This document shows positions 7,986 to 43,354 of a DNA stretch of 47,901 bases, one piece after another. Positions within the stretch are counted from its first letter, which is position 1, and the number at the start of each line of letters is the position of its first letter. The stretch spans positions 1-47,901 of the forward strand of contig VGKP01000004.1 in NCBI GenBank assembly GCA_016866975.1, written 5' to 3'. Under the pieces are notes generated by a model, which saw only the letters and a list, made by a program, of their open reading frames with translations, did not search any database and was not told the origin of the DNA. The translations under genes and the position numbers were made by a program. The stretch is from Candidatus Pacearchaeota archaeon. GTDB taxonomy: Archaea > Nanobdellota > Nanobdellia > Pacearchaeales > GW2011-AR1.

Positions 7986-8054
7986 ATAAACCCATAAGAG
8001 GAGGTCCCATCCTTCAAAAAGAGTGATGAAGCGTCCTCTTCTGGGGAAAAGAGG
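7986..8054 (-). ncRNA. 69-bp direct repeat copy 1; candidate small RNA gene or attachment site
   Basis: 67/69 identical to 11238-11306. Minus-strand TATA (plus tatttaag 8080-8087) lies 26 nt from the repeat edge, the same spacing as copy 2. 5' hairpin CCTCTT/AAGAGG. Confidence 0.5.
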
Positions 8055-8156
8055 TGTTATTATAATGATGGAAATTGGCTATTTAAGGGTTATGGAGGAT
8101 GAATCTTGAGGAGAAATCTTGGTTAAAAAGAGGTTTTGAAGATTAAACGAACTATT

Positions 8157-8600: not shown

Positions 8601-8963
8601 TTATTTTGATTCTTTGAAAGGTGCTGAGTGGCGATCTAAGAAGGTCGCTTTGTAAAATTGAACTGTGTATGTGGTTTGTGTTGGGCCGTCTTCATAAGAG
8701 CCTTTAGAACAAGTATAGGCATTAACTGTCCGAGGCGATTTTCCAGATTTTTGCTCTGCCCATCGCGCTAATGAGTTCAATCTTTTTCTCAAGGTCTTTC
8801 TATTTGCTTCAAGTGTTGGTTCGTGGTCGAGACTAAAAGATTCTGGGAATCCTACTGGAGTGGCAAATGCAAAGATTTCTTCTCCTTTTAGATTTTCGGC
8901 AAAGAAGTAATTTCTATCTCCACTTGGGTAGATAATCTCTCTAAGTCTTGGTGTTCGATGCAT
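8601..8963 (-). CDS. Hypothetical protein (about 120 aa)
   Basis: The ORF-track start 8993 lies inside a repeat element; ATG 8963 (MHRTPRL) is more plausible. Confidence 0.65.
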   Translation of the reverse strand: MHRTPRLREIIYPSGDRNYFFAENLKGEEIFAFATPVGFPESFSLDHEPTLEANRKTLRKRLNSLARWAEQKSGKSPRTVNAYTCSKGSYEDGPTQTTYTVQFYKATFLDRHSAPFKESK

Positions 8964-8970
8964 GATTTTA

Positions 8971-9094
8971 TCATCAAAAAAACGATGCGCCACTGTGGCT
9001 TAAACGCCGCAGTTTGATGCAGGCGCTCGTTTTTTGGATGCTCAAGGAACAACTCCAGCTTAAAAGCTGGAGTTTTAGTCAAGTTCCTTGACAT
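8971..9094 (-). repeat. R-family bipartite structured element, divergent copy
   Basis: Same architecture and linkers as 33907-34025 and 39730-39848, with compensatory stem changes. Confidence 0.85.
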
Positions 9095-9183
9095 AAAAAT
9101 TGCCTATTTAAGTTTTTCTGTTTGAAAAATAGCTAAAAATTGGTTAAAACGGCGGTTAATATAGATTATGCGAACTAATTGGT

Positions 9184-11237: not shown

Positions 11238-11306
11238 ATAAACCCATAAGAGGAGGTCCCATCCATCAAAAAGAGTGATGAAACGTCCTCTTCTGGGGAA
11301 AAGAGG
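11238..11306 (-). ncRNA. 69-bp direct repeat copy 2; candidate small RNA gene or attachment site
   Basis: TATA (plus tatttaaa 11332-11339) 26 nt from the repeat edge; a T-run follows on the minus strand near 11200. Confidence 0.5.
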
Positions 11307-11574
11307 CGATAAGATATCTAAGAATAGGTATTATTTAAATCTTATGCTGTGTTTATAGTTGTCGACGATAGAGAGAGTGTTTTTGAGTGTTTTTTGCTGT
11401 CTAAACAGATGTTTATATCTTAATATGTGGTGTTTGAGTAAATTAAATTGCTGTTTGAGGTGTCTTGCCCGAGTTTTTTGAAGTGTTTATGGGGTGTTGG
11501 AATGGTGTTTTTTATGCTTTTTTATCCTCGCTGATGTAGAAAGGTTTATAAAGTAGAGGTGTTGGTATACTATT

Positions 11575-12508: not shown

Positions 12509-13429
12509 TTAGATGTCTCTGAGCTGGAAAATTGTGGGAAGAGAGGCTATTTTTTTAAGATCTGGAGAGATCTGAAGTATAATCTTCTTGTTATTTTCCT
12601 TAGTTTTAAGAATAGGTGAGCCTTTTTTAATGAGTTTTTGTACGTAATCACGTATAGAGCTCTCGGTCAAAGAGAGTTTTTGGGCTAAGAGAGGATAATC
12701 TACTGTAAATCCTTGTTCTTCTAATTGATAAATTGCAGAGAATACTTCCATCTCTTGTTTTGTGAGCCTCTTGAATTTTAAACGAACTTCTTTCTTTGCT
12801 TGATCTAGAGTCTCTAAGGCTTCTGAGATCTCGAATAGGTGCTGGAATGTGTGTTCTTGAGGGGTTCTAGAACCGATTTTTGTGTGTAAATGGATGTGCT
12901 GGTCTGTCTGCTGGTCTGTCTGTCTGTCTGCTGGAACCCCATCATTTCCACTGGAAACCATTGATTTTATGCCTTTTAGGACGTATTGATGTGGTTTTTG
13001 TGCTGGAATGCTGGAATTGGTGTGCTGGAATGCTGGGTTTTCTGGATTTTGTGCTGGAATAAGTGTGTTGGTCTGTCTGTCTGCTGAAGAGAACCTAGGT
13101 TCTCTCTCAACACTCTCCTCTTTTGATGAAGGGAAACTAAAATCTTTCTCAACACTCTCCTTCCTAAGGAAACCTTGGTTTCCTTGTGGGTCAACCTTCC
13201 TTTCAACAGGCCCTCCTGAAGGGAAACTAAAATCTTTCTCAACACTCTCCTTCCTAAGGAAACAAAGGTTTCCTTGTGGGTCAACCTTCCTTTCAACACT
13301 CTCCTCTTTTAGGATATCATCTAGTGTCTGTCTTAAGAAAGAAGTTTCTTCATTGAGAAAGGCTATTTGATCTTTGAGGTATTGAATATCTGCCTTTGCT
13401 TTCGCGAAGGCTTCTTTGATTGGGTCCAT
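12509..13429 (-). CDS. Coiled-coil / winged-helix DNA-binding protein (paralog B) with an in-frame repeat insertion
   Basis: N-terminal heptads, QTD-rich linker, C-terminal HTH (YPLLAQKLSLTESSIRDYVQKLIKKG); same layout as paralog A. Confidence 0.8.
   Translation of the reverse strand: MDPIKEAFAKAKADIQYLKDQIAFLNEETSFLRQTLDDILKEESVERKVDPQGNLCFLRKESVEKDFSFPSGGPVERKVDPQGNQGFLRKESVEKDFSFPSSKEESVEREPRFSSADRQTNTLIPAQNPENPAFQHTNSSIPAQKPHQYVLKGIKSMVSSGNDGVPADRQTDQQTDQHIHLHTKIGSRTPQEHTFQHLFEISEALETLDQAKKEVRLKFKRLTKQEMEVFSAIYQLEEQGFTVDYPLLAQKLSLTESSIRDYVQKLIKKGSPILKTKENNKKIILQISPDLKKIASLPTIFQLRDI
12936..12958 (-). promoter_or_regulatory. ORB-like box (origin recognition box) inside the CDS
   Basis: GTTTCCAGTGGAAATGATGGGGT: TTCCAGTGGAA dyad plus G-string, matching the archaeal ORB consensus. 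Confidence 0.65.
13084..13308. repeat. P-family hairpin mosaic inserted in frame in the CDS (contains a 90-bp period duplication)
   Basis: Modules gaagagaacc-NN-ggttctc, tcaacactctcc and ccttgtgggtcaaccttcc also occur intergenically at 33.7-33.9 and 43.3 kb. Confidence 0.85.
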
Positions 13430-33701: not shown

Positions 33702-33835
33702 CTGAAGAGAACCAAGGTTCCCTCTCAACACCTTCCTTCTGAAGAGAACCAAGGTTCCCTCTCAACACCTTCCTTCTGAAGAGAACCAAGGTTCCCTCTC
33801 AACACCTTCCTTCTGAAGAGAACCAAGGTTCTCTC
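33702..33835 (+). repeat. Tandem array of 37-bp P units (three full plus one partial), without spacers
   Basis: ctgaagagaaccaaggttccctctcaacaccttcctt starts at 33702, 33739, 33776 and 33813. Confidence 0.9.
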
Positions 33836-33905
33836 AGGGATTCATAATCCCTGATGACCGTCAAGAATCAGCAGATTCTTGAGGCCTTGTGGGTCAACCT
33901 TCCTT
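33821..33905 (+). repeat. P/Q composite double-hairpin element, copy 1
   Basis: 85 bp identical to 43270-43354. Confidence 0.92.
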
Positions 33906-33906
33906 A

Positions 33907-34025
33907 TGTCGGGAACCGATGAAAACCACACCTTTCAAGGTGTGGTGGTTCCCGAGCATCTCCAAAAACGAGCGCCTGCAACAAACCTCGGCTTTTAAGC
34001 CGAGGTGGCGCATCGTTTTTGTGAT
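33907..34025 (+). repeat. R-family bipartite structured element, copy 1
   Basis: 119 bp identical to 39730-39848. Confidence 0.92.
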
Positions 34026-34173
34026 TAAGAAACATTATCTTTCACTTATCAAATTTAAGAAAGGCAGATATCTAAAATGGGTTTTCTTTGGTGACATCAG
34101 TTAAATATACAAGCTCTTGTCAAATAAATTTTCAAAAATAAGAAAACAAGAGCTTTCTCAGAGAGAAAAAATC

Positions 34174-37875: not shown

Positions 37876-37930
37876 TGTCAAGGATTTACATTCTTGTGGT
37901 TCAGTCTGAGGCGGCGCGTCGTTTTTTTGA
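37876..37930 (+). repeat. Internally deleted R-family element
   Basis: Starts TGTCAAGGA and ends GGCGCGTCGTTTTTTTGA, matching the two termini of the 9-kb copy. Confidence 0.55.
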
Positions 37931-37933
37931 GAT

Positions 37934-38731
37934 TTATACTAGAAGAAGGGTGTAGAGGAAGAAGATGACTGTGATGGCCACAAGAACTGTCCAGATTGTT
38001 TTTGACCCGAACAAAATCTGGGTGCCGTCAAGATTAGAGAATGGAATCAGGCTAGTGATAGCGTAAAATGTCGCGAATTTTGCGAGAGGTTCCTCGTTAA
38101 AGAAGTAACTTGCCACTGCCAAAAAAAGTGACGCGATAACTCCCGATGTACCAATGAGGCCATTGTGCCAATCTGTGACTTCAGAGAAACTATAAAATCC
38201 ATGCCTTTTTGCGGCGCGGTGTCTTAATGCTCTCGCCTCAAAAGTCAATATGGTCATAAGGAATAGTTTGCCTGCAGTAATTAATGAGGTCACAAGAGGA
38301 AGGATGATTCCTGTAGGAACTTCATTTTTAAAATAAGCAGTAGGACGGAATCCGAAACGCTCCATATGCCAGATGCGGTGCTCTGCCCTTATGTCAAGAG
38401 AAGCAGCGACAAGTTTTTTTGCGCCTACTGAAACAACCAAAATAATCAGAGCGTAATATGCTGCCTGAGATATAGATGTCCAGCTCTGGTTTAGTATCGA
38501 AGGCATGGCTATTACGACAGACAGGATAATCCCCGCTCCCAAAAGATTTTTAATTTCCTCAGTTTCCATGCATCTCTCTAGAGAATGTTTTATATAAACA
38601 TTATGCGAGTAGTGTGCAAGCATAAAGTATAAATACTCATACGCATAAATCTTGTAATGTTGAGAGTAAAAAGAGTGAGTGAAGTTATTGGGAAGAAAGC
38701 TTATACTTCGGAAGGTGATTTCTTTGGACAA
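37934..38731 (-). CDS. Multi-pass membrane protein (M50 peptidase-like, catalytic motif degenerate)
   Basis: Several TMs; LIPFSNLDG resembles the M50 NLxPxxxLDG motif but no HExxH is present; real start is probably downstream. Confidence 0.6.
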   Translation of the reverse strand: MSKEITFRSISFLPNNFTHSFYSQHYKIYAYEYLYFMLAHYSHNVYIKHSLERCMETEEIKNLLGAGIILSVVIAMPSILNQSWTSISQAAYYALIILVVSVGAKKLVAASLDIRAEHRIWHMERFGFRPTAYFKNEVPTGIILPLVTSLITAGKLFLMTILTFEARALRHRAAKRHGFYSFSEVTDWHNGLIGTSGVIASLFLAVASYFFNEEPLAKFATFYAITSLIPFSNLDGTQILFGSKTIWTVLVAITVIFFLYTLLLV

Positions 38732-39247: not shown

Positions 39248-39745
39248 TTGATTATGGCCTATGAGACGATTTTTAACAGTGAACTAGCACAAACGGCGCT
39301 TGTCTTCGTTTTGGTGTTTACTCTTGTCAACGCAGTCTTGCAGAAGTCAAAGATTCTGGGAGATGGAAAGAATAGCGCAGATGCTCTTGTGGCGCTTGCA
39401 GTAGGCCTTTTAGTATCTACGGTAGGATATGCTACTGACATAATAAGAAGACTTGTACCTTTCTTAGGGGTATCTCTAGTTGTGATACTAGTTTTCTTGT
39501 TATTAGTGGCGATATTCTTCTCAGAAGGAAAGTTTGAGTTGCATAGTGGGGTCCTGATTGCATTTGGGATTATAGCATTTGTTGCAGTAGTAATAGCCGT
39601 CGCTAATATAACGGGGGCGTGGACATATGTCAAGGACTTCTTTGCTGGAGGAGATGACAATTCTTTTGCAGCAAACTTGATATTGATATTGGTAGTTGTT
39701 GGAGCAGTATTTTTCGCATTAAAATATTCTGTCGGGAACCGATGA
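39248..39745 (+). CDS. Membrane protein, paralog 1 of a local trio; stop codon lies within an R element
   Basis: FVLVFTLVNAVLQKSKILG...ALAVGLL...VPFLGV motif shared with the two downstream paralogs. Confidence 0.8.
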   Translation: MIMAYETIFNSELAQTALVFVLVFTLVNAVLQKSKILGDGKNSADALVALAVGLLVSTVGYATDIIRRLVPFLGVSLVVILVFLLLVAIFFSEGKFELHSGVLIAFGIIAFVAVVIAVANITGAWTYVKDFFAGGDDNSFAANLILILVVVGAVFFALKYSVGNR

Positions 39746-39848
39746 AAACCACACCTTTCAAGGTGTGGTGGTTCCCGAGCATCTCCAAAAACGAGCGCCT
39801 GCAACAAACCTCGGCTTTTAAGCCGAGGTGGCGCATCGTTTTTGTGAT
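39730..39848 (+). repeat. R-family element, copy 2
   Basis: Identical to 33907-34025; overlaps the last five codons of the upstream CDS. Confidence 0.92.
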
Positions 39849-43269: not shown

Positions 43270-43354
43270 AACCAAGGTTCTCTCAGGGATTCATAATCCC
43301 TGATGACCGTCAAGAATCAGCAGATTCTTGAGGCCTTGTGGGTCAACCTTCCTT
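43270..43354 (+). repeat. P/Q composite double-hairpin element, copy 2
   Basis: 85 bp identical to 33821-33905; lies in a divergent promoter region. Confidence 0.92.

Follow-up and report, generated by a model that had tools for sequence, protein, structure and literature searches.

IS200/IS605 insertion sequences and their gene-less derivatives share several hallmarks, namely, a target tetranucleotide that lies outside the element on the left, a similar motif inside its right end, subterminal hairpins, and the lack of both terminal inverted repeats (TIRs) and target-site duplications (TSDs) (PMC3201880, PMC3119063, PMC10055086). The PATEs of Haloquadratum walsbyi and the PATE-like elements of Geobacillus stearothermophilus are non-autonomous derivatives of this kind (PMC3119063, PMC10055086), and in Haloquadratum, the PATE palindromes are themselves targeted by SMR-A repeats (PMC3119063). 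For DPANN archaea, a TIR-based census has reported a high density of MITEs in a Woesearchaeota genome (PMC11602168). Here we analyze a dispersed repeat of about 120 nt, denoted R, no description of which was found in the literature. We argue, with a probability that we put at roughly 0.7, that R is a PATE-like, non-autonomous, IS200/IS605-style single-strand transposon of DPANN archaea (Pacearchaeota/Woesearchaeota, GTDB Nanoarchaeota). R is thus most likely a new family of a known kind, a gene-less IS200/IS605-type element, and not a new RNA.

The window, that is, the whole 47,901-nt stretch of DNA analyzed, is contig C4 of a 31-contig, 0.806-Mb assembly (hereafter G000; 38.8% G+C, 89% complete). 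A covariance model of the repeat (R1), run without filters across the whole window, detected three full copies and nothing else, with scores of 119-135 bits (Table 1). The two plus-strand copies, placed at 33907-34025 and 39730-39848 in the preliminary description of this DNA, are identical, as claimed there, and the divergent minus-strand copy that it located at 8971-9094 is real: this copy is 81% identical to the plus-strand ones over positions 16-119, carries left and right module variants other than theirs, and has two private substitutions, both in the right inner hairpin. All the compensatory stem changes that had been listed are present, and the coordinates of the ORFs agree with the reported settings of the copies in a 5' leader, across a stop codon, and in intergenic DNA. 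Thus, the minus-strand copy ends 10 nt upstream of the ATG of ORF 8601-8963, the second plus-strand copy contributes the final 14 nt and the stop codon of ORF 39254-39745, and the first one is intergenic.

The boundaries of the element required some revision. Of the TGTC start proposed previously, GTC is indeed the start of the element, but the leading T is part of the target TTAT, because R copies that are 100% identical differ in those four bases. The left boundary is placed before the G of GTC also because contigs from other samples have loose ends at 33903-33906 and 34025-34027. The segment 37876-37930, originally described as an internally deleted copy keeping both ends, shares with R only about 8 nt on the 5' side and about 19 nt on the 3' side, and obtains no score with the model. 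In its full extent, it consists of TTAT followed by GTCAAGGA at the 5' end, an unrelated middle part, and a degenerate B tail at the 3' end; it folds no better than shuffled sequences (z -0.4), and on its 5' side it is similar to a small hairpin that belongs to another repeat family of the genome. We treat it as a probable R-related remnant or mosaic, not as an established deletion derivative.

The assembly contains many copies of R. BLAST with R across the assembly yielded 71 segments, of which 51 are near full length, and a strict pattern search identified the 47 complete copies, 117-123 nt in length, that are analyzed below. At least ten copies in the genome are 100% identical to the plus-strand copies of the window, each with unrelated flanks; several contigs of the assembly begin or end inside R; and, in contigs from four other lake samples, the contig depth summed over the R bins exceeds the flank depth by a factor of 10-20. 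The identity of copies with unrelated flanks, the contig ends in R, and the high depth imply that R is a recent, high-copy repeat. A chance origin of these repeats is excluded by the copy number, the contig depth, and the DNA fold z-scores of the window copies, which range from -7.5 to -10. The copies are single, dispersed between housekeeping genes on nearly all contigs, and intergenic in 46 of the 47 cases. With respect to the neighboring genes, the order is ++ for 17 copies, +- for 11, -- for 7 and -+ for 5. The lone copy within a long ORF, of the A2+B3 type, is found in a DDE transposase ORF (G000:C8:20620-21891; L350:321-1592, minus), where it provides 40 in-frame residues at the end of the DDE domain (Pfam DDE_5, DDE_Tnp_2, DDE_Tnp_1).

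Table 1. R copies, parts of the minus-strand copy, and a related segment in the window.
Feature	Position	Strand	Remarks
R copy, variant A2+B2, 120 nt	8973..9092	-	model R1, 135 bits; DNA fold z -7.5
Target motif TTAT, flank 5' of the element, proposed left cleavage site	9093..9096	-	TTAT in 37/47 copies
Left module A	9041..9092	-	helices 1 and 2: compensatory changes at 14/16 pairs
Invariant linker GAGCATC between the modules	9037..9043	-	equals C-terminal codons of IS200-type tnpA genes
Right module B	8973..9036	-	helices 3-5: compensatory changes at 21/25 pairs
R copy, variant A1+B1, 118 nt	33908..34025	+	TTAT at 33904-33907; at least 10 further genomic copies match it at 100% identity
R copy, variant A1+B1, 118 nt, identical to 33908..34025	39731..39848	+	5' flank TTCT
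R-related remnant or mosaic (treated as such)	37876..37934	+	no model match, no significant fold

R is modular, with two variants of the left module (A1 and A2) and three of the right module (B1, B2 and B3), and chimeric copies, such as A2+B1 and A1+B2, exist. Each module consists of an outer stem, a one-sided 5' bulge of 7-9 nt with an A-rich end, and an inner hairpin of 8-9 bp with the loop TTTA, TTCA or TTTTAA. In the minus-strand copy of the window, the 5' bulge of the left module measures 9 nt, the last three being AAA, and its inner hairpin has 9 bp and a TTTA-type loop; in the right module, a single A bulges out of a long outer stem, the 5' bulge measures 8 nt, with CAA as its last bases, and there is again an inner hairpin. 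The 5' end of the element is GTC and the 3' end is (T/G)TGAT; the end motif is kept in the 47 copies and across genera, and the target, end and linker motifs hardly vary. We propose that the right cleavage site follows the GAT of the terminal TTGAT. In the consensus and in DNA folds, GAGCATC is predicted to base-pair at two places, namely, at the left junction (the AT of the target plus G1, and TC with GA) and at the terminal GAT.

In A2-type copies (window 9073-9092, minus strand), the opening hexamer of the element, GTCAAG, is complementary to the CTTGAC bulge located 3 nt downstream, and this pairing would form an alternative small hairpin competing with the outer stem. The module A bulge and the first bases of the element change together in variant A1 and in the genome G045, a pattern in the sequences that suggests an alternative hairpin or a guide-like contact. 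The ends of the bulges differ, A-rich on the left and CAA on the right, as do the target TTAT and the end TGAT; by analogy with IS608, the guide rule applied to these bulge ends would give T:A and G:C at the second position, a comparison that involves two motif classes only. A peptide-coding role was considered and rejected: A2+B2 is open in one frame, but the stem changes keep no residues, and A1+B1 has stops.

The covariance model was built from 13 sequences of 11 genomes. In this first alignment, which was not fitted to the model, 97.0% of the cells are paired and compensatory double changes occur at 25 of the 41 pairs. In a larger alignment of 50 distinct sequences from about 35 genomes, which was fitted to the model and therefore favors structure, 97.7% of the 1902 cells are paired and double changes are observed at 35 of the 41 pairs (369 cells), values that none of the 500 shuffles reaches. 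When the partners are slid by 1-3 columns, pairing falls to about 40%. The preliminary description had regarded a larger alignment as the place to check its covariation, and there the covariation is significant; hence, the fold of R is under selection.

The preliminary description left it open whether this selection acts on DNA or on RNA, and proposed an ncRNA or ribozyme class as one of its two options. R would then be a structured ncRNA gene or a cis-acting RNA element (an sRNA, a ribozyme, or a hairpin-plus-T-run terminator or stabilizer) that was duplicated and kept for its RNA fold. The invariant unpaired segments within the conserved fold fit such a role, and so do the co-oriented upstream gene (30 of 44 cases) and the run of five to seven T residues at the end of the top strand, a possible archaeal terminator. 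Archaeal RNA polymerase reads such T-runs as terminators. The substitution pattern argues against an RNA: stem changes pass directly from one Watson-Crick pair to another, and, with 23 G-T/T-G cells (1.2%), 16 A-C/C-A cells (0.8%) and 27 others among the 1902, G-T is about as rare as A-C. Furthermore, the two strands of R fold equally well as DNA (z -9.3 and -10.1), the flanks contain no shared promoter, and seven copies are antisense to both neighboring genes; with GC skew taken into account, no co-orientation with genes is left (see below). Finally, dozens of copies are 100% identical and follow a fixed 5' tetranucleotide, and positions differ between species.

Comparison with Rfam assigned R to no RNA family. 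At gathering thresholds, the window contains tRNA only, without a match on R; with permissive filters, the best match on R was HgcC, at 17.6 bits vs the cut-off of 50, and PsrR1 also scored far below its cut-off. The weak, sub-threshold HgcC-like similarity involves the right module (window 33942-34028, E 0.055) and is probably due to chance, HgcC being an archaeal family that was found by its G+C-rich hairpin content. Taken at the level of sequence, the Watson-Crick-only pairing, the equal folding of the strands, the lack of an Rfam match, and the presence of copies in all gene orientations point to a fold that is used in DNA. The ncRNA or ribozyme option is accordingly unsupported, and we consider it very unlikely that R is an RNA gene or RNA element.

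The flanks of the copies bear on how such DNA might move. The four bases 5' of R are TTAT in 37 of the 47 copies, TAAT, TGAT or TCAT in 8, and TTCT and CTAT in one each, so that the 5' flank ends in AT in 46 of the 47; TTAT is expected at less than 1% of random positions. Beyond the target tetranucleotide, the upstream flank is T-rich, and the 3' flank is variable. The same pattern of target and end holds in about 35 other genomes. No TSD had been noticed in the preliminary description, and, throughout the 47 copies, there is neither a TSD nor a TIR, the AT of the target and end motifs being all that is shared between the two ends. The classical MITE was rejected for these reasons.

Comparison of orthologous sites, which had also been suggested as a check, yielded one filled/empty pair, in a related lineage. 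Among 80 metagenome loci around relatives of the neighboring helicase, R-family elements are present in 10, at differing positions. One of these loci, L195, contains an R-family element of about 167 nt that is absent from L204 and L202, the flanks of which are 88-90% identical. To within a few diverged bases, the left break-point follows a TGAT-type motif and the right one follows the terminal TTGAT; the pair, which comes from a related lineage with 10% flank divergence, is not base-perfect. Two other candidate sets, L159/L155 and L215/L190/L192, turned out to be replaced or composite segments rather than clean pairs. In the same-genus genome G045, which carries at least 12 R copies on other contigs, R is absent from the M16-LigT spacer syntenic to the 33908 site, the syntenic genes being only about 65-73% identical, too distant for base-level empty sites. 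Within the near-identical population (JGI, ENA and Logan contigs), no empty sites were found, the contigs either carrying copies or breaking inside them; likewise, no joint across R was found in contigs of four other lake runs.

The orientation of the copies follows local GC skew. Neighboring copies are co-oriented in 22 of 27 cases, and the mean GC skew is +0.063 for plus-strand copies vs -0.038 for minus-strand ones, which places the top strand of R on the G-rich strand (Mann-Whitney p 6e-5; the p-values for skew are overstated because R copies are clustered, with nine on C3 alone). Gene-strand bias correlates with skew; when it is regressed out, the skew association persists (p 0.001), and the gene-strand bias residual has p 0.83. 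This pattern is the one expected if the top strand enters the lagging-strand template (PMC5027513), and, considering the clustered copies and the fragmented assembly, we take it as supportive, not decisive. Because both strands fold equally well, the strand specificity of R rests on the one-sided target motif together with the skew.

A candidate for the enzyme is encoded in the same assembly: an intact IS200-type Y1 transposase, TnpA, of 155 aa (G000:C10:122-589; 77 bits to PF01797), with HLH and Y-x3-Q motifs. TnpB was not found in the assembly. The IS200-type element with the intact TnpA occurs in two different upstream contexts (G000:C10:1-615 [L031], the end of C2, and the start of C21), and fragments of a second, unrelated Y1 transposase are located at the start of C6 and the end of C12. 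Homologs of this TnpA are encoded in 61 of 200 genomes of the family, and conservation of the IS ends extends across genera. On the left, the IS begins behind T-rich flanks, the last four bases of which are often TTAT or TGAT, and contains a hairpin with a TTTA loop, preceded by AATC; at the right end, GAGCATCA at the C-terminus of tnpA is followed by AAAC, a hairpin with a TTTA loop, and the terminus GTCAT about 10 nt beyond the hairpin.

R and the IS ends have in common the TTAT-type T-rich flanks, AAAC or AATC in front of the inner hairpins, and the TTTA loops; GAGCATC is found upstream of the right hairpin in both, and the terminus of the IS reads T-C-A-T. In addition, the A2 stem of R nearly matches the left-end stem in locus L075. 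In the IS copy at the C21 end of G000, an R-type tail with TGAT as its last bases takes the place of part of the left end; the two families thus interact or recombine. We infer that this TnpA is the enzyme acting on R.

An autonomous element with R ends was not found. The preliminary description had suggested looking for Y1 genes with R at their ends, and none exist at 30 TnpA loci, where the model has 0 matches within 1.5 kb of the tnpA genes. Model R1 gives no score for the IS ends, the termini of all Y1 genes examined are unlike those of R, and 7 further Y1 loci of R-rich genomes have IS-1-type ends. R could therefore be a mobile single-strand or hairpin DNA that is moved by an enzyme other than an IS200-type TnpA, for example, an unrecognized HUH or other nuclease, a recombinase, or a virus or plasmid enzyme not binned with the MAGs. 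That the termini of R are unlike all IS ends seen and that no TnpA gene is flanked by R modules speak for another enzyme, as does the failure to find PF01797 in 7 of 10 other R-rich MAGs (81-91% complete); the R-rich MAGs without this domain include G045, G056, G091, G047 and G150. Some of the Y1 genes may be missing because the MAGs are incomplete and multi-copy ISs assemble poorly, and old copies can outlive their transposase. PF01797 is present in 3 of 5 further R-rich MAGs, and, across 150 genomes, the co-occurrence of R and TnpA is weakly positive (both in 19, R only in 29, TnpA only in 25, neither in 77; odds ratio about 2). G000, G058, G125 and G201, in which bursts of identical-scoring copies are clearest, all have Y1 genes.

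The genome also holds a DDE transposase, but a DDE enzyme would give TIR-bounded insertions with duplications, and R has neither. A virus-borne enzyme gains nothing from a scan of viral contigs with R, which yielded three matches, all chance, in coding DNA. In contrast, the target motif, the one-sided architecture, the hairpin type, GAGCATC and the skew bias all match IS200/IS605 elements and the co-resident IS. Mobilization by another enzyme is therefore unlikely.

How closely does R follow the described single-strand elements? Like PATEs, R has a 4-5-nt targeting sequence on its 5' side and a related 3' motif, forms homogeneous bursts alongside heterogeneous older copies, and has palindromes into which other small repeats insert, as SMR-A does. 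It is also too short for a transposase gene, and its stem changes keep no reading frame. The near-terminal palindromes of a PATE resemble those of IS200/IS605 transposons in its host or in related genomes; R shows this resemblance in part, having the hairpin type, the TTTA loops, the AAAC context and GAGCATC in common with the IS but different termini. Unlike PATEs, R is without a known parent IS of the same termini, its inner hairpins are set inside covarying outer stems with a one-sided bulge, its right hairpin is 19 nt from the end, and its module variants recombine and chain. The setting differs as well, the host being a DPANN archaeon and the partner an IS200-only element that lacks TnpB.

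With IS608 and ISDra2 (PMC3201880, PMC5027513), R shares the insertion 3' of a tetranucleotide outside the element, the similar motif at its own 3' end, the subterminal hairpins, and an orientation consistent with targeting of the lagging-strand template. The foot of the left hairpin is 17-19 nt from the cut site in R and 19 nt in IS608. In contrast to IS608 and ISDra2, R contains no transposase gene, and its regions between cut site and hairpin are base-paired; the outer stems and the 19-nt right-end spacing set R apart from IS608.

Bacterial REP/BIME-RAYT systems (TnpA-REP; PMC8266576) resemble R in being high-copy extragenic palindromes that form mosaics with small repeats, are linked to a Y1 HUH enzyme and undergo processing in single-stranded form. 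However, R is bipartite and 120 nt long vs about 35 nt and has no GTAG-type 5' tetranucleotide; no R1 match occurs at the tnpA loci, and the co-resident Y1 gene belongs to a multi-copy IS with ends of its own. Membership in REP/RAYT was rejected, given that no Y1 gene is flanked by R and that the GTAG-type tetranucleotide is missing. The Rickettsia palindromic elements (RPEs) also are palindromic repeats of about 100-150 nt that proliferate in a reduced genome, and one R copy is in-frame within an ORF, but R is otherwise intergenic and has a defined target motif and an IS200-type signature. We know of no sequence relationship between R and RPEs.

The folded, imperfectly palindromic modules of R, the stems of which vary while extrahelical or bulged bases stay conserved on one strand, also call to mind attC-like recombination sites of integron-like, Xer-type cassette systems, all the more so as the left outer stem of several variants has the form ...AAC / GTT.... 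Integron attC sites are defined by R''/R' core sites and by a location at the 3' ends of cassettes arrayed next to an integrase. The AAC/GTT pair is not conserved across genera, though, and the copies are single and dispersed, not organized in cassette arrays beside an integrase; nor do the bursts of identical copies and the fixed TTAT flank fit. Hence, it is extremely unlikely that the modules are recombination sites of this type.

Several other repeats occur near R. A 'P/Q-type' family, made up of a pair of small hairpins (about 19 nt each), numbers about 21 copies genome-wide, including 33835-33905 and 43284-43354 in the window. Eight P/Q-type copies are located in the loop of the right inner hairpin of R, and inserts like these are found in the right-end hairpins of IS200-type elements of other genomes; the P/Q-type inserts resemble the SMR-A repeats (PMC3119063). 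Directly upstream of the P/Q unit and R, window positions 33702-33835 consist of perfect 37-bp tandem units, each with an AACC..GGTT hairpin, so that a BIME-like mosaic of 37-bp units, P/Q unit and R follows the M16 peptidase gene. In L039, an ENA contig from the same strain, the number of 37-bp units is lower by one. Related tandem units occur at 13084-13316, and a pair of 79-nt direct repeats with 92% identity is found at 7986-8064 and 11238-11316.

R is widespread among related archaea. Of 200 genomes sampled from the same GTDB family, 35 contain relatives detected by BLAST, and the covariance model identified R in 48 of 150 genomes of that family, each representing a different genus (Pacearchaeota/Woesearchaeota-type DPANN), the number of scored copies in a genome reaching 23 or more. 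When the exact pattern of the R tail was sought across 185,579 species genomes, more than 119 stretches were returned; among the 80 listed, 78 are in MAGs titled Pacearchaeota, Woesearchaeota, Nanoarchaeota or 'archaeon', and 2 are in bacteria.

Taken together, the TTAT flank, the TGAT end, the absence of TIRs and TSDs and the Watson-Crick-only covariation support the other option of the preliminary description, a non-autonomous, fold-selected ssDNA mobile element of the HUH/Y1 style. The orientation by GC skew, the filled/empty pair and the co-resident IS200-type TnpA with similar hairpins lend it further support. The label 'REP/MITE-like' that was attached to this option is too loose, R having neither the inverted repeats of MITEs nor the REP/RAYT arrangement, and the closest described kind is the PATE (PMC3119063).

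On this basis, the following mechanism can be envisaged for R as a PATE-like element. The top strand, once single-stranded, would fold into two similar Y-shaped modules, each with an inner hairpin inside a bulged outer stem. A Y1 (HUH) transposase acting in trans, likely the IS200-type TnpA described above, would bind the inner hairpins and cut 3' of the flanking TTAT and 3' of the terminal TGAT of R itself. R would be released as a single-stranded circle that re-inserts 3' of another TTAT in single-stranded DNA at a replication fork, without target duplication; both the circular intermediate and the bases that would act as guides are predictions. Selection on hairpin geometry would maintain Watson-Crick pairing while stem sequences drift and modules recombine.

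A variation on this scheme assigns a more active role to the linker: GAGCATC would be a cis-acting guide that, by pairing with both junctions, joins the two cut sites at the foot of the Y-shaped hairpins, unlike the arrangement in IS608, perhaps with a non-Y1 enzyme involved, given that most R-rich MAGs lack a detected Y1 gene, or else R would have been co-opted in the gene-dense genomes of its hosts, for example, as a hairpin-plus-T-run terminator. We rate these possibilities as rather improbable. If true, the cis-guide reading would make R a self-organizing ssDNA element, more than a passive PATE.

As a PATE-like transposon, R has implications for the biology and genomics of its hosts. DPANN archaea are among the cellular organisms with the smallest genomes, yet about 0.7% of the present one consists of a single, recently active, gene-less element, and the family is spread over about one third of the genera sampled in its GTDB family. 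R accounts for many of the assembly breaks in R-bearing MAGs. Covariation alone should not lead to such repeats being classified as new RNAs. With 41 covarying pairs, module swaps and fixed unpaired motifs, the family represents a rich natural mutagenesis set for what a single-strand transposase reads, and R insertions are useful markers of strain-level dynamics and replication direction in uncultured archaea.
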